A program made the position numbers and the translations under genes. A model generated the notes under the pieces. It had not been told where the DNA came from. It did not search any database and saw only the letters and a list, made by a program, of their open reading frames with translations. A stretch of DNA of 64,000 bases from IMG/VR virus record IMGVR_UViG_3300020281_000010; one strand, written 5' to 3'. This DNA comes from a virus. Below are positions 5,964 through 45,110 of the stretch, piece by piece; the stretch's first letter is position 1; each line of letters starts with the position of its first letter.

Positions 5964-7055
5964 ATGCCTTTCGATCCCATCCCTTACACAACCGAAGACT
6001 TCTTCAACTATCTTGTAGAGAACTTCGGACCAGAAGTTTCTGTTCCTAATCTTCTCGCTGCTTCCGATCACTTCGGATGTTCTCTTGCTACTGTCAAGAA
6101 ACGTATGAAGCAGTACAAAACTGGATACAACAAGTGGCAACTCACAGTTGCTGAGGCACGTAAGCAATTCGAGGCAGCAGTTGCACCACAAGTATCTCTT
6201 GTTCCTGCAGCAGACCCTAACTACGTTCCTTTCGGTAACTACAGCACAATCAAAAAAGTTATCAAGAGCAAAGCGTTCTACCCTACCTACATCCAAGGTC
6301 TGTCAGGAAACGGTAAAACTCTTGGTGTTGAGCAAGCGTGTGCTTCTCTAAATAGGGAGTTGATTCGCGTTAACATCACGATTGAAACCGACGAAGATGA
6401 TCTTATTGGTGGGTTTCGTCTTGTTGATGGTAATACTGTCTGGCACAATGGACCAGTCATCGATGCTCTGGAGAAAGGAACTGTGCTGCTTCTAGACGAA
6501 GTAGACCTTGCATCAAACAAGATTCTCTGTCTCCAGTCTGTTCTTGAAGGCAAAGGTGTATTCCTTAAGAAGATTGGTCGCTATGTAAAACCCGCCCCTG
6601 GATTCAATGTTATTGCAACTGCAAATACTAAAGGTAAAGGCAGCGATGACGGTCGCTTTGTTGGAACCAATGTTCTCAATGAAGCATTCCTAGAGCGTTT
6701 TGCTATTACCCTCGAACAGGACTACCCATCTGTAGTTACTGAAACTAAAATCCTTAAAGGTATCTGTGATGATGCTGACTTCTGTAAGCGTCTTGCTGAC
6801 TGGGCATCCATCATCCGCAGGACTTTTGCTGAGGGTGGTATCGATGAGTTGATCTCAACTCGTAGGTTGGTTCACATTGCCAAGGCATTCAACATCTTTG
6901 GTTCTAAGGAAGATGCTATCAAGTTCTCCATCAATCGTTTCGATGAGGAAACTAAGCAAGCATTCTTTGAACTCTATGATAAGATTGACGCGGACTTCGC
7001 ACCCGAAGGTGACAAGGTTGTACCTCTAAACGGAACTGATGTTGACTTGGGGTGA
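5964..7055 (+). CDS. cobS: MoxR/CobS-like AAA+ ATPase
   Basis: Walker A GLSGNGKT, EDDLIGG, LLLDEVD Walker B, ATANTKG, AFLERF, STRRL sensor II. Confidence 0.9.
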   Translation: MPFDPIPYTTEDFFNYLVENFGPEVSVPNLLAASDHFGCSLATVKKRMKQYKTGYNKWQLTVAEARKQFEAAVAPQVSLVPAADPNYVPFGNYSTIKKVIKSKAFYPTYIQGLSGNGKTLGVEQACASLNRELIRVNITIETDEDDLIGGFRLVDGNTVWHNGPVIDALEKGTVLLLDEVDLASNKILCLQSVLEGKGVFLKKIGRYVKPAPGFNVIATANTKGKGSDDGRFVGTNVLNEAFLERFAITLEQDYPSVVTETKILKGICDDADFCKRLADWASIIRRTFAEGGIDELISTRRLVHIAKAFNIFGSKEDAIKFSINRFDEETKQAFFELYDKIDADFAPEGDKVVPLNGTDVDLG

Positions 7056-24395: not shown

Positions 24396-24590
24396 GGAGT
24401 CGGACCGATCAACCGACACGGGAGTGACTGAATAACCCTGTTGGAATTAGGCGGGGTAATGTAAACAGTCAGGGGTGGTGCCCGCTCTTCGGAGAAGTCC
24501 TTACCAGGATGACTGTTGTTGTTATGTACTAATTTTCGCACTAGCGATTCCCATAACTTGTAGGTATAATGTATTCCTACCTCCCACACA
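24396..24590 (+). ncRNA. Structured ncRNA, manA-RNA-like
   Basis: About 200 nt non-coding gap after own promoter; GGGAG(24420)/CTCCC(24581) closing stem, GTAGG/CCTAC and GTCGG/CCGAC hairpins, GACTGAATAA and GGTGGTGC motifs recalled from cyanophage manA RNAs. Confidence 0.6.
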
Positions 24591-35833: not shown

Positions 35834-38133
35834 ACGTAATTAAAAGAGACGGTACTCCCGTCCCTCTCAACCTTGATAAGGTACATAAAATGGTTGAGTT
35901 AGCGTGTGAAGGACTCACTGGTGTGAGTGAGTCACAAGTAGAAATGAATGCCAACATCCAATTCTTTGATGGCATTAAGACTAAAGAAATTCAAGAGATC
36001 CTGATCAGGTCTGCTAGTGATCTGATTGATATGGACTCACCTAATTATCAGTACGTTGCTGCTCGTCTTCTTCTGTTTGATGTGAGGAAGCAGGTGTTCC
36101 CTGAGTGGGCAGACGAAGTTGGTTACCCACATCTTCAAGACCACGTACAACGTTGCGTAGAAGCAGGTGTGTACGATGGTGACATTCTAAATAAGTACAG
36201 TCCTGTAGAGTGGGATTGCCTTAACAGTTATATTGATCACGAACGTTGTATGGGTTTCACCTATGCAGGGTTGAGACAGATTGTAGATAAGTATCTGGTA
36301 CAGGATAGAAGCACTGGGACTCTCTATGAGACTCCTCAGTATATGTACATTATGGTTGCGGCAACACTCTTCCAAGACTACCCTAAAAACTCTCGGTTAG
36401 AGTATGTACAACGCTACTACACAGCAACCTCCAAAGGAAAAATCAACCTCCCAACGCCAGTGCTCGCAGGGGTTCGGACGCCAATGCGTCAATTTGCATC
36501 TTGCGTTCTCGTTGATGTTGATGACACCCTCGATGGTATCTTTAGCAGTGATATGGCTATTGGTAAATACGTCGCACAAAGGGCTGGTATCGGTATTAAC
36601 GCAGGCAGAATCCGTGGGATCAACTCTAAAATCAGAGGTGGAGAGGTACAACACACAGGTGTTGTCCCCTTCCTCAAAAAGTTTGAAGCAACTGTCAGAT
36701 GCTGTACGCAAAACGGTATCAGAGGTGGTTCTGCTACAGTTCACTTTCCTATCTGGCACCAAGAAATAGAAGATATTCTTGTTCTTAAAAACAACAAGGG
36801 TACCGAAGATAACCGTGTAAGAAAACTGGATTACAGTATTCAGATTAGTAAACTATTCTACGAAAGGTTTATTCAAGGTGAAACAATCTCTCTCTTCTCG
36901 CCTCACGACGTTCCTGGTCTTTATGATGCCTTTGGCACTGATGATTTTGACGCTCTGTACACCAAGTACGAACAGGACGAGAAAATTGCTAGACGGACTG
37001 TCTCCGCCAACCAAATCATTCTCTCACTACTGAAGGAGCGTGCAGAGACTGGTCGTATTTACATTATGAATATCGATCACTGTAACTCTCACTCCTCATT
37101 CAAAGACAAGGTTAATATGTCTAACCTCTGTCAAGAGATCACTCTTCCTACAGATCCTATCTCTCACATTGATGATGAAGGTGGTGAGATTGCATTGTGT
37201 ATTCTCTCTGCCATCAACGTAGGTAAACTTCGTAACCTCAATGAGATGGAGGAACTATGTGACCTTGCAGTCCGTGGTCTGGAAGAACTGATTGACTATC
37301 AGAAGTATCCTGTGAAGGCAGCAGAACGTTCTACTCTTGCACGTCGTTCACTTGGTATTGGTTACATTGGTCTTGCACATTACCTTGCTAAGAATGGTTA
37401 CAAGTATGATGATCAGGGTGCATATGACATCGTTCATCAACTAACTGAGTCATTCCAATTCAACTTGCTCAAGGCATCAAATGCTCTGGCAATGGAGAAG
37501 GGTCCTTGTGATGGATTCCAACACACAAAGTATGCTGATGGAATTCTTCCCATCGATACATATAAGAGTGAGGTAGATGAAATTACAAACGTAGATCTTG
37601 CTTATGATTGGTCATCTCTTAGGGATTCTATCAAGCAATACGGACTCAGGCACAGCACTCTGTCCGCACAAATGCCATCGGAATCTAGTTCCGTTGTGTC
37701 AAATGCAACCAATGGAATCGAACCACCTAGAGACTACCTGTCCATTAAGAAATCAAAGAAAGGACCTCTTAAGCAGATTGTTCCAGGTTTTCCATACTTA
37801 AAAAATAAATACACCCTCCTATGGGATATGCCTTCCAATGAAGGTTACATTAAAATTGTCGCTGTGATGCAAAAGTTCTTCGACCAAGCAATCAGTGGCA
37901 ACTGGAGTTATAATCCAGGCAATTATGAAAACAACGAAGTCCCCTCTTCCGTTATGGCAATGGACCTATTGACAACTTACAAGTACGGTTGGAAGACAAG
38001 TTACTATCATAACACTTATGACAATAAGAAAGATGGTGAAGAAGAACCAACCGTACAACTAACGCAAAGCGTTGATCAACTAGTAAACGAACTTTTGGAG
38101 GCAGAGGAAGACTGTGACAGTTGCAAAGTTTAA
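35830..38133 (+). CDS. nrdA: Ribonucleotide reductase class Ia alpha subunit
   Basis: ATP cone VIKRDG, ASCVL, SNLCQEI, MPSESSS, C-terminal CDSC. Confidence 0.98.
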   Translation: MNVIKRDGTPVPLNLDKVHKMVELACEGLTGVSESQVEMNANIQFFDGIKTKEIQEILIRSASDLIDMDSPNYQYVAARLLLFDVRKQVFPEWADEVGYPHLQDHVQRCVEAGVYDGDILNKYSPVEWDCLNSYIDHERCMGFTYAGLRQIVDKYLVQDRSTGTLYETPQYMYIMVAATLFQDYPKNSRLEYVQRYYTATSKGKINLPTPVLAGVRTPMRQFASCVLVDVDDTLDGIFSSDMAIGKYVAQRAGIGINAGRIRGINSKIRGGEVQHTGVVPFLKKFEATVRCCTQNGIRGGSATVHFPIWHQEIEDILVLKNNKGTEDNRVRKLDYSIQISKLFYERFIQGETISLFSPHDVPGLYDAFGTDDFDALYTKYEQDEKIARRTVSANQIILSLLKERAETGRIYIMNIDHCNSHSSFKDKVNMSNLCQEITLPTDPISHIDDEGGEIALCILSAINVGKLRNLNEMEELCDLAVRGLEELIDYQKYPVKAAERSTLARRSLGIGYIGLAHYLAKNGYKYDDQGAYDIVHQLTESFQFNLLKASNALAMEKGPCDGFQHTKYADGILPIDTYKSEVDEITNVDLAYDWSSLRDSIKQYGLRHSTLSAQMPSESSSVVSNATNGIEPPRDYLSIKKSKKGPLKQIVPGFPYLKNKYTLLWDMPSNEGYIKIVAVMQKFFDQAISGNWSYNPGNYENNEVPSSVMAMDLLTTYKYGWKTSYYHNTYDNKKDGEEEPTVQLTQSVDQLVNELLEAEEDCDSCKV

Positions 38134-39304
38134 GATGTCATCCGACGACAATACTAAAACAGGCATTGATAAAATTACAGTATTTAATAAGGGACAACAC
38201 GATACTAAGAAACAACCTATGTTCTTTGGACAACCACTCGGTGTTCAAAGATACGATGGTTTTAAGTATCCTGTCTTTGATAGACTAACCAATTCACAAT
38301 TAGGATTCTTCTGGAGACCCGAAGAGGTGTCACTTCAAAAGGATCGTTCTGACTTTCAAGAATTAACTGATGCACAAAAGCACATCTTTACGAGCAATCT
38401 ACGGTACCAGATCCTCCTTGACTCTGTACAAGGTCGTGGTCCTGGGATGGCATTCATTCCATATTGCTCACTACCTGAACTTGAGTCTGCGATGATCGCG
38501 TGGGAGTTTATGGAGATGATCCATAGTCGCTCTTACACATACATCATCAAGAATGTTTACTCAAATCCAGAGGAAGTTTTCGATACGATTCTTGACGACG
38601 AAAGAATTCTTTCACGTGCTAGATCTGTGACTGAAGCGTATGATGAGTTCATCAACTACGCACAGGAATGGGGACAAGGTAACTGGTGGAAGACGGACTG
38701 GAAAGATTCTCCTTCTGCATACTGGGAGAAGAAAGAACTTAAGCGTAGACTCTATAGAGCAGTTATGAATGTGAATATCCTTGAGGGTATTCGCTTCTAT
38801 GTTTCATTCGCTTGTTCTTTTGGATTCGGTGAACTTAAAAAGATGGAAGGATCTGCTAAGATCATTTCACTTATTGCACGTGACGAGTCACAACACCTCG
38901 TACTCACTCAGAACATTCTTAACAAGTGGGCAGAAGGTGACGATCCTGATATGATCGACATCATCAAAGAGGAGAAAGACAACGTTGTTGAAATGTTCCA
39001 ACGTTGTGTAGAAGAAGAGAAGGATTGGGCAGAGTATCTGTTCAAAGATGGTTCAATGATCGGACTCAATGCTAAACTTCTCGGACAATATGTTGAGTGG
39101 ACTGCTAACCGTAGAATGAAAGCGATCGGCATCGATCCTATCTACGATATTCCTGCTAGAAACAATCCACTTCCTTGGACAAATCATTGGTTGAACTCTA
39201 AAGGTCAACAGAATGCACCACAGGAAACAGAGATTGAATCCTATGTTGTAGGAGCAATCAAACAAGACATTAAAAAAGATACGTTCTCTGGTTTCAAACT
39301 TTAA
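38114..39304 (+). CDS. nrdB: Ribonucleotide reductase class Ia beta subunit
   Basis: FWRPEE, EMIHSRSY, EGIRFYVSF, RDESQH, APQETE. Confidence 0.98.
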   Translation: MTVAKFKMSSDDNTKTGIDKITVFNKGQHDTKKQPMFFGQPLGVQRYDGFKYPVFDRLTNSQLGFFWRPEEVSLQKDRSDFQELTDAQKHIFTSNLRYQILLDSVQGRGPGMAFIPYCSLPELESAMIAWEFMEMIHSRSYTYIIKNVYSNPEEVFDTILDDERILSRARSVTEAYDEFINYAQEWGQGNWWKTDWKDSPSAYWEKKELKRRLYRAVMNVNILEGIRFYVSFACSFGFGELKKMEGSAKIISLIARDESQHLVLTQNILNKWAEGDDPDMIDIIKEEKDNVVEMFQRCVEEEKDWAEYLFKDGSMIGLNAKLLGQYVEWTANRRMKAIGIDPIYDIPARNNPLPWTNHWLNSKGQQNAPQETEIESYVVGAIKQDIKKDTFSGFKL

Positions 39305-39306
39305 CT

Positions 39307-39936
39307 ATGTTTATTGGTGAAGTCCCGACCACTGTGTCGGAACCCATCAAGGCAAGACTATTGAATAGTCCCTACTGGCCTTGGTATATGATTACTGAAA
39401 CAACTGGGTATGACCCTAAGTTTAATGATTCTATCCCCGATGAAATGTCGGGGGAGGATCCCCAGTTTCAGCACACAGTTGTAAACAACCACGGAGAAAT
39501 TTCTTCCCAACACGCTTGGGATATTGTGGTGGAACCACTGTGGAAATATATTTCTGAGAACTTTGCCGACGAACTAGGAGACTTTGAAAAGTTCAGACGT
39601 ATCAAAATCAATCTATTAACTAAGAAAGAATCGAAGCATCTATACCATACACCACACGTGGATTATGATTTTCCACATATGACGTTGCTGTATTATGTGA
39701 ACGATTCAGATGGTCCTACGTTCTTCTTCAATGAAACGTATGATGGATCACGTAAGAAACTGACGCTGAAAACTAAGATCGAACCACGTCAAGGTAGGTT
39801 TGTTATCTTCGATGGTCATAACTTTCACGCGAGCAGTAATCCGCAGTACAATGACTATCGATGCATAATCAACTTAAATTACATCTTAAGTTCCTCAGGC
39901 AACTTAAGCGGGATCTTAAACGAGATAAAGGTATAG
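39307..39936 (+). CDS. 2OG-Fe(II) oxygenase-like protein
   Basis: PHVD, LYYVNDSDGPT, IFDGHNFHAS, RCIINLN. Confidence 0.8.
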   Translation: MFIGEVPTTVSEPIKARLLNSPYWPWYMITETTGYDPKFNDSIPDEMSGEDPQFQHTVVNNHGEISSQHAWDIVVEPLWKYISENFADELGDFEKFRRIKINLLTKKESKHLYHTPHVDYDFPHMTLLYYVNDSDGPTFFFNETYDGSRKKLTLKTKIEPRQGRFVIFDGHNFHASSNPQYNDYRCIINLNYILSSSGNLSGILNEIKV

Positions 39937-39975
39937 GTATCCGTAGGAACAGAAAGCGTTACAAAAAGAAAGATG

Positions 39976-40004
39976 TTGCTAAATAATACAGGGTATGTTA
40001 TCAT
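39976..40004 (+). promoter_or_regulatory. sigma70-type promoter with overlapping late-type CTAAATA
   Basis: TTGCTA-17 nt-TATCAT with extended TG; predicted TSS near 40010, at aptamer start. Confidence 0.65.
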
Positions 40005-40011
40005 ATCCATA

Positions 40012-40052
40012 CGTTCATCCTCTTCGGAGGACGCAAGTAAGTCGCGGAACGG
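40012..40052 (+). ncRNA. Glutamine-riboswitch-like aptamer 1 (glnA / Downstream-peptide class)
   Basis: P1 CGTTC/GAACG, P2 TCCTC-TTCG-GAGGA, junction CGCAAGTAAGTCGCG. Confidence 0.75.
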
Positions 40053-40054
40053 AG

Positions 40055-40255
40055 CGTTCATCCCGCTTAAACCACTATGTTAATGCATTTATTGCTGTTA
40101 ATGTACCTCGATATTGAGTGTGCGGATGCGTATCGAATGGTTCGAAACGTAAACAAGCACGAACAATTATCCCCTAGGGATAAGATCGAGTTGGTTGAAG
40201 TCATTCAAGAGGCAACTCCTGAATGTCCTTGGGACGCAAACGACTAAAGGAACGG
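40055..40255 (+). ncRNA. Glutamine-riboswitch-like aptamer 2, split by an internal ORF
   Basis: CGTTCATCCC (40055-64) ... GGGACGCAAACGACTAAAGGAACG (40231-54): same scaffold as aptamer 1 with a 166-nt P2 loop. Confidence 0.65.
40077..40247 (+). CDS. 56-aa ORF nested in aptamer 2
   Basis: MLMHLLLLMYLDIECADAY...PECPWDAND*; stop codon lies in the 3' aptamer strand. Confidence 0.6.
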   Translation: MLMHLLLLMYLDIECADAYRMVRNVNKHEQLSPRDKIELVEVIQEATPECPWDAND

Positions 40256-40288
40256 GCCTAAAAATCCAATTACTTTAGGAGTATTCCA

Positions 40289-40432
40289 ATGGAACTAATC
40301 ACTTACAGAGGCGTTAAGTATAACGCAAAAGAGTACAAAGCAAAGGTACTTGCCGAGGCATCATCTCGTAGAAACCACGAAATGATGTACAGAGGCATCA
40401 AAGTTGAACGAAAGTTCGCATCTAAGAGTTGA
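40289..40432 (+). CDS. YRG-motif peptide (DUF4278-like), riboswitch-downstream
   Basis: MELITYRGVKY...MMYRGIKV; AGGAG RBS. Confidence 0.75.
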   Translation: MELITYRGVKYNAKEYKAKVLAEASSRRNHEMMYRGIKVERKFASKS

Positions 40433-40536
40433 TGTTTGACTCACCTTTAACGGTGGTCGCACTCATATCTCTGGGGTCCGCAGCATTTCTTACCATAATT
40501 TATGCAGAAGTAAAACTTTTACATCAAGGAGGATAA
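40432..40536 (+). CDS. Small membrane peptide (34 aa)
   Basis: MFDSPLTVVALISLGSAAFLTIIYAEVKLLHQGG*; TGATG coupling. Confidence 0.55.
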   Translation: MFDSPLTVVALISLGSAAFLTIIYAEVKLLHQGG

Positions 40537-40540
40537 GACA

Positions 40541-40702
40541 ATGCGACTCAGGATCTCCATAGATTATGGGTTGCCAGAGTATGACGAGGTGAAACACAAT
40601 CCCGATAAGGTATTTGCCTTCCTTTGCTATCGTGGTGTGTACTATGCCAAATGGTGTAATCTCAACTTGTCATTCAATCAACGATCGACTTGGATCAAAT
40701 AA
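40541..40702 (+). CDS. Second YRG-motif small protein (53 aa)
   Basis: ...FAFLCYRGVYYAKW...; GGAGG RBS. Confidence 0.65.
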   Translation: MRLRISIDYGLPEYDEVKHNPDKVFAFLCYRGVYYAKWCNLNLSFNQRSTWIK

Positions 40703-40714
40703 CTTTCCGAAACG

Positions 40715-40740
40715 AACACCCTGCAAAGGGTGTTTTTTTA
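40715..40740 (+). terminator. Rho-independent terminator
   Basis: AACACCCT-GCAA-AGGGTGTT + T run. Confidence 0.85.
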
Positions 40741-40780: not shown

Positions 40781-41449
40781 ATGAAAATCTTTCTCGATTG
40801 TTCGGACCCCGAACTTATCCAACACGCGATGGAAACCAATCTAATCGACGGTGTTACTACCAACCCTTCTCTTATGTTGAAGGCAGGTAGAAATCCAAGA
40901 GATGTTATTCAAGAAATTAGTGATCTCTTCTCTTGGGATGCTTCAATTTCAGCAGAGGTTATGGGTGACAATGCTGAAGAAATGCTTGAAGCAGCAAATG
41001 AATACTATAGTATCGCACCCAACGTCACAATCAAACTACCCTGTACACGTGAAGGTTTGATTGCTTGTAGTGATCTATCAGCAGATGGCATCAGTACAAA
41101 CGTAACGTTAATCTTCTCAGTCGCACAAGCAATCCTCGCTGCAAAGGCAGGAGCATCTATGATGTCTCCTTTTGTTGGCAGACTGAACGACAATTCTTTC
41201 TCAGGTATTTCATTAGTCCAAGCAATCTCTAGGGTATATCGTATGCACGATGTAGAGACAGAGATCCTTGCTGCATCTGTACGCGAAGTGCACCACGTCG
41301 CACGTTGCTTTGATGCAGGGGCAGACATTGTGACTATGCCATACGAAGTGTTCAATAAAATGTACAAACATATCCTCACAGACAATGGTCTTGAGAGGTT
41401 TGAAAATGACTGGGCAAAACTACAGGAAGAATTACACGTAGACGAATGA
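40781..41449 (+). CDS. talC: Transaldolase (TalC/Fsa family)
   Basis: KIFLD, GVTTNPSL, IKLPCT, NVTLIFS, SPFVGR, ASVR. Confidence 0.95.
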   Translation: MKIFLDCSDPELIQHAMETNLIDGVTTNPSLMLKAGRNPRDVIQEISDLFSWDASISAEVMGDNAEEMLEAANEYYSIAPNVTIKLPCTREGLIACSDLSADGISTNVTLIFSVAQAILAAKAGASMMSPFVGRLNDNSFSGISLVQAISRVYRMHDVETEILAASVREVHHVARCFDAGADIVTMPYEVFNKMYKHILTDNGLERFENDWAKLQEELHVDE

Positions 41450-44983: not shown

Positions 44984-44994
44984 CAATTCAATAC

Positions 44995-45110
44995 TTCTCC
45001 CCGTAAACCGAGACCTCTAGGGAGGATAAATTACGTCTCTCATACCTCTGCCTAAGGGTGGTAGAGGAATATTATATTCACTGTTCCCTGCAGTATTACC
45101 TAACCCTTTT
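44995..45110 (+). ncRNA. PhotoRC-II-like structured psbA leader RNA
   Basis: GAGAC/GTCTC stem, CCTCT/AGAGG hairpin, AGGGA(45019)/TCCCT(45085) pseudoknot potential; position 5' of psbA. Confidence 0.65.

Follow-up and report, generated by a model that had tools for sequence, protein, structure and literature searches.

A probable two-core relative of glutamine riboswitches that closes across a 56-codon gene at the 5' end of an early cyanophage mRNA

In the 64,000-nucleotide (nt) stretch of viral DNA analysed here (IMG/VR record IMGVR_UViG_3300020281_000010, called the window throughout), which comes from an oceanic T4-like cyanomyovirus, the region 40012-40254 encodes a relative of glutamine riboswitches. 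We consider it likely, though well short of certain, that the 5' end of an early phage mRNA forms here an interlocked glutamine riboswitch with two cores, the helices of which close across a 56-codon gene, and that this switch would control two genes in opposite directions. As far as sequence comparison can tell, the RNA is a new variant of the glutamine riboswitch that is real, widespread and structurally well supported, and nitrogen sensing and the translation of the nested gene probably compete on it. A preliminary description of the window had read the same region as two side-by-side aptamers, a first unit (40012-51) and a second unit (40055-254). All the sequence elements that it had listed were found where it had placed them; in the fold that we favour they are arranged as follows.

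40012-40016 (+): 5' strand of the outer helix P1, CGUUC, partner of 40250-40254; covariation
40018-40031 (+): P2 hairpin of the outer core, UCCUC-UUCG-GAGGA; covariation, in short and long-range forms
40032-40039 (+): core strand after P2 with the AGUA half of the E-loop (40036-39), CGCAAGUA (in DNA letters CGCAAGTA)
40040-40044 (+): 5' strand of P3, AGUCG, partner of 40241-40245; double changes
40047-40059 (+): inner helix GAACG-GAG-CGUUC (strands 40047-51 and 40055-59), a triloop hairpin equivalent to P1 in the permuted inner core; covariation
40061-40065 (+): 5' strand of the inner-core P2, UCCCG, partner of 40230-40234 across the open reading frame (ORF); covariation
40077-40247 (+): nested gene of 56 amino acids (aa), its last six codons coinciding with the sensor core; ORF and ratio of nonsynonymous to synonymous divergence (dN/dS)
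40230-40240 (+): 3' strand of the inner-core P2, UGGGA (40230-34), then the core strand CGCAAA (40235-40); encodes W-D-A
40241-40245 (+): 3' strand of P3, CGACU, overlapping the Asp codon and the U of the stop codon; covariation
40244-40249 (+): anti-Shine-Dalgarno (anti-SD) strand CUAAAG, which holds the nested stop UAA (40245-47) and an E-loop position; partner of 40273-40278 in the alternative fold
40250-40254 (+): 3' strand of the outer P1, GAACG; covariation
40273-40281 (+): CUUUAGGAG, partner of the anti-SD strand, overlapping the Shine-Dalgarno sequence (SD) AGGAG (40277-81) of the downstream gene

By covariation, the partner of the first CGUUC is the last GAACG, and that of the second CGUUC is the first GAACG, contrary to the side-by-side arrangement of the preliminary description. 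In IMG/VR as a whole, a first 3' strand changed to CAACG was accompanied by CGUUG as the second 5' strand (as in L115 and L120) in 64/64 variant contigs, 36 of them distinct and from many backgrounds, and one-sided changes were never seen. The outer strands of these contigs were CGUUC/GAACG in 36 and CGUUU/AAACG in nine, and CGUUU at the first 5' strand was matched by AAACG at the last 3' strand in all nine; L026 combines both sets of changes. When the two folds were compared on a random 40-sequence alignment, the nested fold had 100% of its cells paired and three pairs changed on both sides, a result that none of 500 shuffles reached, while the side-by-side fold had broken cells. Among the minimum free energy (MFE) folds of 40 loci, 28 contained the inner helix, 24 each the outer P1 and the long-range P2, and only one each of the side-by-side helices was seen.

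The complementarity of AGUCG and CGACU, which the preliminary description had proposed as an inter-aptamer pseudoknot, is itself supported by double changes (AGUCA/UGACU twice and AAUCG/CGAUU once), the remaining single changes being only wobble-compatible. Given the swapped P1 strands, however, this pairing is an ordinary nested P3 of one outer type-1 aptamer rather than a pseudoknot. As the variants compensate across the units, and as only the composite of both has the two halves of the E-loop (AGUA/GAA), the selected fold appears to be that outer type-1 aptamer. Judged by its motifs, the second core sits within the outer P3 loop, in the circularly permuted order GAACG-GAG-CGUUC-A-P2-CGCAA; this segment keeps, in permuted form, every motif that is common to the two validated glutamine classes.

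The inner P2 strands are separated by 165 nt in the window. To assess this long-range pairing, the strand after CGUUCA (40055-60 in the window) was compared with the strand before CGCA in an anchor-based test that included 115 distinct strand pairs of the second unit. Position 1 was UA in 110 pairs and CG in five, position 3 was CG in 109, UG in three and UA in two with one mismatch, and position 4 was CG in 93, UA in 14, UG in five and AU in two, again with one mismatch. Thus, the positions were 99-100% paired, a fraction equalled in only 0-3 of 1000 shuffles, and the changes from UA to CG and from CG to UA in relatives bear out the earlier proposal that the second hairpin closes over the ORF through TCCC/GGGA. 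Where the first unit is also split, position 3 of its P2 was CG in 35 pairs, UA in 23 and UG in three, with no mismatch, and long-range helices of the type UCUUAUG/CAUAAGA, UCUCAUG/CAUGAGA and UCUCAC/GUGAGA include the start codon there. For both helices, shuffled partners and slid registers stayed well under the observed pairing. The covariation thus indicates that the long-range hairpins around both nested genes are real.

The layout is not a peculiarity of one genome. The region was matched by blastn in 427 phage records, and among 208 distinct loci with the unit junction that we gathered from IMG/VR the second unit was split by an ORF in 207, the sole exception being L263 with a loop of 3 nt; this recurrence places the arrangement far beyond chance. 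The order of elements was identical in six reference phages of six genera (ACG-2014b, P-RSM1, S-SKS1, S-SSM4, S-SSM5 and S-P4), in which CGTTCATCCC is directly followed by the ATG and the annotation of the ORF, about 54 aa long, is hypothetical. In 98/208 loci the first hairpin is split as well, by a gene for a paralogue of about 66 aa, the AUG of which falls within the covarying long-range helix, at a distance of only about 12 nt from where the transcript is predicted to start. The loop of P2 varies in the family from the 3 nt of L263 to 230 nt, and the whole structure spans about 245 nt in the window and up to about 450 nt in relatives. The 20-nt junction was present in no genuine host genome. 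Three records filed under a Synechococcus metagenome-assembled genome (MAG) and a Euryarchaeota MAG (L274/G001 contig 1 of 194 kb, L279 and L280) carry the phage junction and the nested gene, and look like cyanophage DNA binned with cellular genomes.

Some variants deserve to be described separately. The first-hairpin gene, MFSILLALTLAHH...C...C, is found at L013:446-681, in L025, L047 and 95 more loci, and is a paralogue of the nested gene of the window. L263 (minus strand, 6358-6447), the single locus of the 208 that has no gene in the second hairpin, is a natural control. Solo split units of the form CGUUCA...ORF...GGGACGCAAACGACUGAAGGAACG occur at L041:570-749, in L042 and at L146:1063-1245; as they have no first unit upstream, the aptamer must close on itself across its gene. 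In L013, L016, L025, L035, L047, L063, L071 and L005, the last GGAACG is immediately followed by a further conserved element, AACGGAUCC-hairpin-GAGAAGGUUAA, placed between riboswitch and SD; the window lacks it.

Sequence variation indicates that the 56-aa nested ORF is a real gene. The second-unit ORF has a median dN/dS of 0.29 at a synonymous divergence (dS) of 1.3, as expected from the earlier prediction that it is conserved and coding, and its diversity at codon positions 1/2/3 is 0.39/0.21/0.51 (3>1>2); the first-unit ORF has a dN/dS of 0.13. The last 18 nt behave differently. There, the terminal codons TGG GAC GCA AAC GAC TAA (W-D-A-N-D-stop), correctly recognized before as the 3' strand of the aptamer, show a diversity of about 0.02 at all three positions, synonymous ones included. 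Since even the synonymous sites are frozen, there is RNA-level constraint on top of coding, and the freezing is accounted for by the same nucleotides forming the sensor core. Moreover, the nested ORFs always stop in the conserved core (UAA in AAGUAAGU; UAA or UGA in GACURAAGG) or at the 3' strand of P2. The distance from the start of CGUUCA to their AUG is 10 nt in 194/204 second-unit loci and in 73/96 of the other set, and in relatives this AUG is often paired (e.g., UCCCAUG/CAUGGGA). In the window, owing to a 12-nt insert, it lies 11 nt past the P2 helix. The GGAG within the inner helix (40047-40059) may act as a weak SD in relatives. The nested coding sequence of the window also contains a 7-bp palindromic hairpin, UUAUCCC-CUA-GGGAUAA (40167-40183), which was flagged on the minus strand in a terminator scan.

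The preliminary description had regarded the nested ORF as a leader peptide. Instead, the nested proteins form one diverse family of 50-75 aa with two invariant cysteines about 34 residues apart in the family alignment, and a hydrophobic N-terminus that is clearly signal-peptide-like in some members. The window's protein matches PHROG 504, which, like PHROG 6471, is a family of unknown function, and its AlphaFold2 model is a helical hairpin with a predicted local distance difference test score (pLDDT) of 85.6. No match to it was found in Pfam, and its fold had no match in the PDB with an E below 1 (Foldseek). Profile searches gave a functional name in 0/417 related clusters, the few named ones being called 'hypothetical protein' and coming from cyanophages and marine metagenomes. 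Among 200 sampled host-family genomes no homologue was found, save on the 194-kb contig that resembles mis-binned phage, which suggests that the gene family is phage-only. When loci were collected through protein similarity alone, both aptamer halves flanked the family in 61/66 and 68/72 of them.

The composite fold has the features of the type-1 glutamine class (Rfam RF01739), in support of the earlier view that a relative of glutamine riboswitches stands 5' of a YRG/DUF4278 gene. P1 is closed by CGUUC/GAACG (40012-16 with 40250-54), with the compensatory CGUUU/AAACG of the nine contigs; P2 (40018-31) directly follows CGUUCA and is itself followed by ACG(G/C)A, the window having CGCA, the type-2 variant, and not CGGA; and the E-loop AGUA/GAA lies beside a P3 helix. 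The 3' half of the E-loop is GAA in relatives with a UGA stop and AAA in the window, which is a deviation. The strand 40032-40039 fits the Rfam consensus ACGGAAGUA and is invariant in the 208 loci, and the placement is that of a 5' leader of a nitrogen-related or DUF4278 gene, with a DUF4278-like ORF (40289-40432) behind it and a promoter directly upstream. The motifs common to both validated glutamine classes are invariant across phage genera with saturated synonymous sites (dS above 1).

In a permissive scan of 551 nt, Rfam detected the first unit only, with 29.8 bits for Glutamine-II (cut-off 33) and 28.9 bits for Glutamine (cut-off 35); the split part is invisible to it because the loop is longer than the model allows. 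As stand-ins for a window deprived of its ORF, we used the naturally ORF-less L263 in Rfam searches, and in ViennaRNA a mini-construct, which is the window RNA with the interior of the ORF replaced in silico. L263 scored 46.4 bits against RF01739 (cut-off 35), as one composite aptamer in the nested fold: the first CGUUCA, the first hairpin, CGCAAGUA and a P3 AGU...ACU with a 41-nt insert, closed by the GAAGGAACG of the second unit. Rfam pairs as P3 in L263 the very columns that are equivalent to P3 of the window. The second unit of L263 alone reached only 28.1 bits against RF01704 (Glutamine-II), and like the window it stays under the cut-off of that family. The CUAAAG:CUUUAG helix does enclose GAACG and covaries, as the H-type pseudoknot of RF01704 would. 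In tandem loci its nucleotides are also those of the covarying P3 and E-loop, and there we read it as an alternative (OFF) fold; in solo units such as L041 it may be the type-2 pseudoknot. A serial tandem, with each aptamer closed by its own P1, is not what was found, as compensation ran across the units in 64/64 variant contigs.

The alternative fold links the nested stop codon to the downstream gene. The strand CU(A/G)AAG, which contains this stop, has its complement in CUU(U/C)AG, a sequence overlapping with the AGGAG ahead of the DUF4278 gene. A UAA stop was paired with CUUUAG in 59/60 loci, and the combination that would give an A-C mismatch was never seen; for UGA, the corresponding base was C in 75 loci and U in 44. 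Formally counted, 94.6% of the cells of this helix were paired, with 16 double-change cells. As the helix uses nucleotides of P3 and the E-loop, it and the sensor fold are mutually exclusive. The aptamer part of the mini-construct, taken alone, adopted the nested fold at -25.1 kcal/mol. With the platform included, the anti-SD state was the MFE structure at -31.5 kcal/mol, 3 below the nested state at -28.5 kcal/mol.

From these elements a plausible regulatory logic can be proposed. Without glutamine, CUAAAG would pair with CUUUAG, and the SD of the IF17-like DUF4278 gene would be covered; once glutamine binds, that strand would be taken by P3, the E-loop and P1, the SD would be freed and the downstream gene would be turned on. 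The direction of this switch is taken from the type-1 switch of Synechocystis gifB, an on-switch in which glutamine binding frees the ribosome site (PMC6212724). The bound fold would at the same time put the inner helix and P2 on or beside the nested AUG and bury the nested start region. Conversely, a ribosome on the last six codons would cover P2, the core strand, P3, the E-loop and P1, so folding and nested-gene translation should exclude each other, and ribosomes translating or terminating in the nested gene would have to melt the sensor; unfolding by terminating ribosomes, with an integration of translation and glutamine level, had been proposed in the preliminary description and would follow from the geometry. 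The two genes would then be controlled reciprocally, low glutamine favouring the nested gene and high glutamine the DUF4278 gene, possibly with bistability, and glutamine sensing would depend on the translation load of the nested gene.

Several observations weigh against this scheme. Rfam at its gathering threshold, applied to the whole window, reported manA, PhotoRC-II and two tRNAs and nothing at this site, and the helices described were not recovered when the MFE fold of the full 245-nt window RNA was computed; we place no reliance on folds of single sequences. A second copy of the anti-SD strand, CCUAAA at 40258-63, which is typical of loci with a UAA nested stop, including the window, can pair with UUUAGG at 40274-79 over the SD even in the nested fold. 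With its AUG 11 nt outside the helix, burial of the start codon would be weaker in the window than in most relatives, and, since about 170 nt separate the AUG from the later-transcribed 3' half, loading of the first ribosomes can precede the folding of the sensor. Terminating ribosomes would also open the anti-SD helix, which could turn on the downstream gene without glutamine and so blur the switch. Finally, glutamine binding by the permuted inner core is an inference from the motifs that it has kept.

Three other explanations have to be weighed. The one that we take most seriously, although we regard it as unlikely, is that the nested genes are passengers: the riboswitch would control DUF4278 only, small genes would fill its loops since loops tolerate insertions and phage genomes are compact, and nested translation would be a nuisance or irrelevant. 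The free length of the P2 loop, the diverse paralogues found in either loop, the frequent overlap of coding and RNA signals in phages and the position of the window AUG outside the helix would all fit this. It accounts poorly for a nested family that occurs almost only in these loops, for an AUG that is fixed at +10 and paired in many lineages, for ORFs that always end within the conserved core or at the 3' strand of P2, and for the physical incompatibility of a ribosome on the last codons with P2, P3 and P1.

The side-by-side arrangement, with a CGUUC/GAACG closure for each unit and AGUCG:CGACU as a link between them, is very improbable and, on the comparative evidence, disfavoured as the selected final fold. 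It agrees with the register of the 2010 glnA alignment (Weinberg) for the first unit, in which the ORF was taken as the downstream gene. The four strands are identical in the window, where both registers are therefore possible; self-closing solo units do exist (L041, L042 and L146); and the first unit closes on itself in the OFF-state MFE fold of the mini-construct. The arrangement could be a co-transcriptional intermediate. Against it, the 64 contigs with CAACG and CGUUG would acquire C-C and G-G mismatches in this fold, and the nine with CGUUU and AAACG two more; it would leave each unit with one half of the E-loop (AGUA only in the first, GAA only in the second); and the composite of L263 scores far higher than its second unit. 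The least probable explanation is that the RNA does not sense glutamine at all and is a degenerate or repurposed relative, such as a protein-binding site, an RNA-stability element or a recombination scar flanking mobile small-gene cassettes. Scores under the Rfam gathering thresholds in the window, CGCA in place of the type-1 CGGA and aptamer halves that border small genes of one family like cassette edges would agree with it. However, the shared glutamine-class motifs stay invariant where dS is above 1, CGCA is the type-2 consensus, the helices covary, which means that selection acts on the fold, and the regulated gene is of the DUF4278 type typical of glutamine riboswitches (PMC6212724). We therefore retain the interlocked two-core riboswitch as the preferred interpretation.

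The site of this riboswitch lies between an oxygenase gene and talC, and the riboswitch opens a small early phage operon. The surrounding features are the following.

38114-39304: nrdB
39307-39936: 2OG-Fe(II) oxygenase gene
39976-40004 (+): sigma-70-type promoter TTGCTA-17-TATCAT with a TG-extended -10; promoter scan, 9/12 positions matched
40289-40432 (+): downstream gene of 47 aa with two YRG motifs, DUF4278/IF17-like; Pfam and PHROG
40781-41449: talC

The promoter is the one named in the preliminary description, and the predicted transcript of the window begins 0-2 nt ahead of the first helix strand (40012). In 173/203 related loci the -10 box of a promoter-like site ends 7-9 nt ahead of the first CGUUC, so the 5' strand of the outer P1 is essentially the 5' end of the mRNA, and a gene in the first hairpin, where present, gets a leader of only about 12 nt. 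The downstream 47-aa protein scored 23.9 bits against Pfam DUF4278 (cut-off 25.3) and matched PHROG 5049 with an E of 2e-21, and its homologue in S-SSM5 carries the DUF4278 annotation. The operon goes on with a 35-aa hydrophobic ORF (40429-40536) and a 53-aa YRG-containing ORF (40541-40702, PHROG 6192), and a strong terminator (40714-40735) closes it ahead of talC.

No canonical NtcA box was found in the window. A perfect GTA-N8-TAC, which resembles an NtcA box, lies 52-60 nt upstream of the first CGUUC in roughly 120/202 related loci, the equivalent site of the window being at about 39952-39965; GTTGCTAAATAATAC at 39974-39988 of the window overlaps the -35 hexamer, and its spacing is off by one base for an NtcA-like motif. 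In many relatives (e.g., L011, L016 and L075) the palindrome GGTCTATAATAGACC spans the -10 box and could be an operator; the window has GGGTATGTTATCATATCC in its place. Elsewhere in the window, a manA RNA (24398-24590, 124.9 bits) and a PhotoRC-II RNA (44984-45080, 79.5 bits) scored well over their Rfam cut-offs, and the two tRNAs passed the gathering threshold.

Riboswitches are thought to be rare in phages, and here a single layout occurs in hundreds of cyanophage records, which standard scans miss because a gene splits the aptamer. If our interpretation is right, this would be a natural case in which one set of nucleotides serves either a ligand-binding fold or the translation of a real gene, but not both at once, and a case of two sensor cores interlocked via strand swapping; both ideas are relevant to RNA design and to the conduct of riboswitch searches. 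The switch would tie early phage expression to host glutamine, the cell's signal of nitrogen status, and would point to two unstudied phage families, the IF17-like peptides and the two-cysteine helical hairpins, as nitrogen-dependent effectors. As a tentative extension, cyanophages may possess bistable 'gene-wrapping' riboswitches with two glutamine pockets per RNA and helices around one or two translated genes. A nested gene covered by polysomes would hold the sensor open, whereas a glutamine-locked sensor would silence the nested gene and turn on an IF17-like inhibitor of host glutamine synthetase, and the phage would thereby switch between two small-protein programmes according to host nitrogen status. 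In that event, the inner core would be the first natural circularly permuted riboswitch aptamer.

It was known before that glutamine riboswitches exist, that they occur in tandem and that a few cyanophages carry them (PMC2864571, PMC9481103, PMC5473149, PMC9964418); the count for cyanophage genomes in a 2017 survey was two glutamine aptamers (PMC5473149). The 2010 glnA alignment already includes metagenomic sequences of the present kind, but it aligns the first unit only and marks the nested ORF as a downstream gene. In the full-text literature searched, Ames and Breaker 2011 not included, and in the 2010 supplement, neither a nested gene nor swapped strands were found to be described.

Among known RNAs, Glutamine-I, exemplified by the Synechocystis gifB/IF17 leader (PMC6212724), shares with the phage RNA the P1 CGUUCA...GGAACG, a P2 followed by ACG(C/G)A, the AGUA/GAA E-loop and P3, the position 5' of a DUF4278 gene and, by analogy, a likely function as a translational on-switch that frees the ribosome site. 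Unlike in Glutamine-I, P3 is interrupted here by a whole second core; the inner P2, and in many relatives also the outer one, encloses a translated gene; the RNA is about 245 nt and up to about 450 nt long, compared with about 60 nt for the known form; and the nested coding sequence and its stop codon belong to the core, so that standard scans miss the RNA. With Glutamine-II (RF01704) it has in common CGUUCA, a hairpin, CGCA...CGA and GGAACGG, and a helix flanking GGAACG that reaches the start region of a YRG-peptide gene, and the solo split units (L041) resemble this class most. It differs in its scores below the cut-off of 33, in the sharing of the type-2 helix strand with the outer type-1 P3 and E-loop in tandem loci, and in the gene within the hairpin loop. 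As in tandem riboswitches (glycine and glutamine doublets), one leader holds two cores of the same class, and a sharper response could result. The published glutamine doublets, of which PMC9481103 lists 157, were described as serial units with their own expression platforms. In contrast to these, the cores described here swap P1 strands, lie one inside the other, serve a single platform and have a gene between their halves.

Other parallels come from outside the glutamine classes. In the Mg2+ leader of Salmonella mgtA with its mgtL ORF, and in classical attenuation leaders, the position of the ribosome on a leader ORF decides the fold of the RNA, and these ORFs are short sensor peptides without a function of their own that lie between alternative hairpins. 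The proposed phage system resembles them in integrating translation and a small-molecule signal on one leader, but differs in that the loop of an aptamer hairpin is filled by a conserved gene for a functional-looking protein. Group I introns, such as that of phage T4 td, carry homing-endonuclease ORFs in their peripheral loops, the RNA being a ribozyme and the gene that of a mobile element. There, as here, a gene lies in a loop of a structured RNA, long-range helices close around it, and translation and folding interfere; in contrast to these introns, the phage RNA is a relative of ligand sensors and not a ribozyme, and shares no sequence with them.

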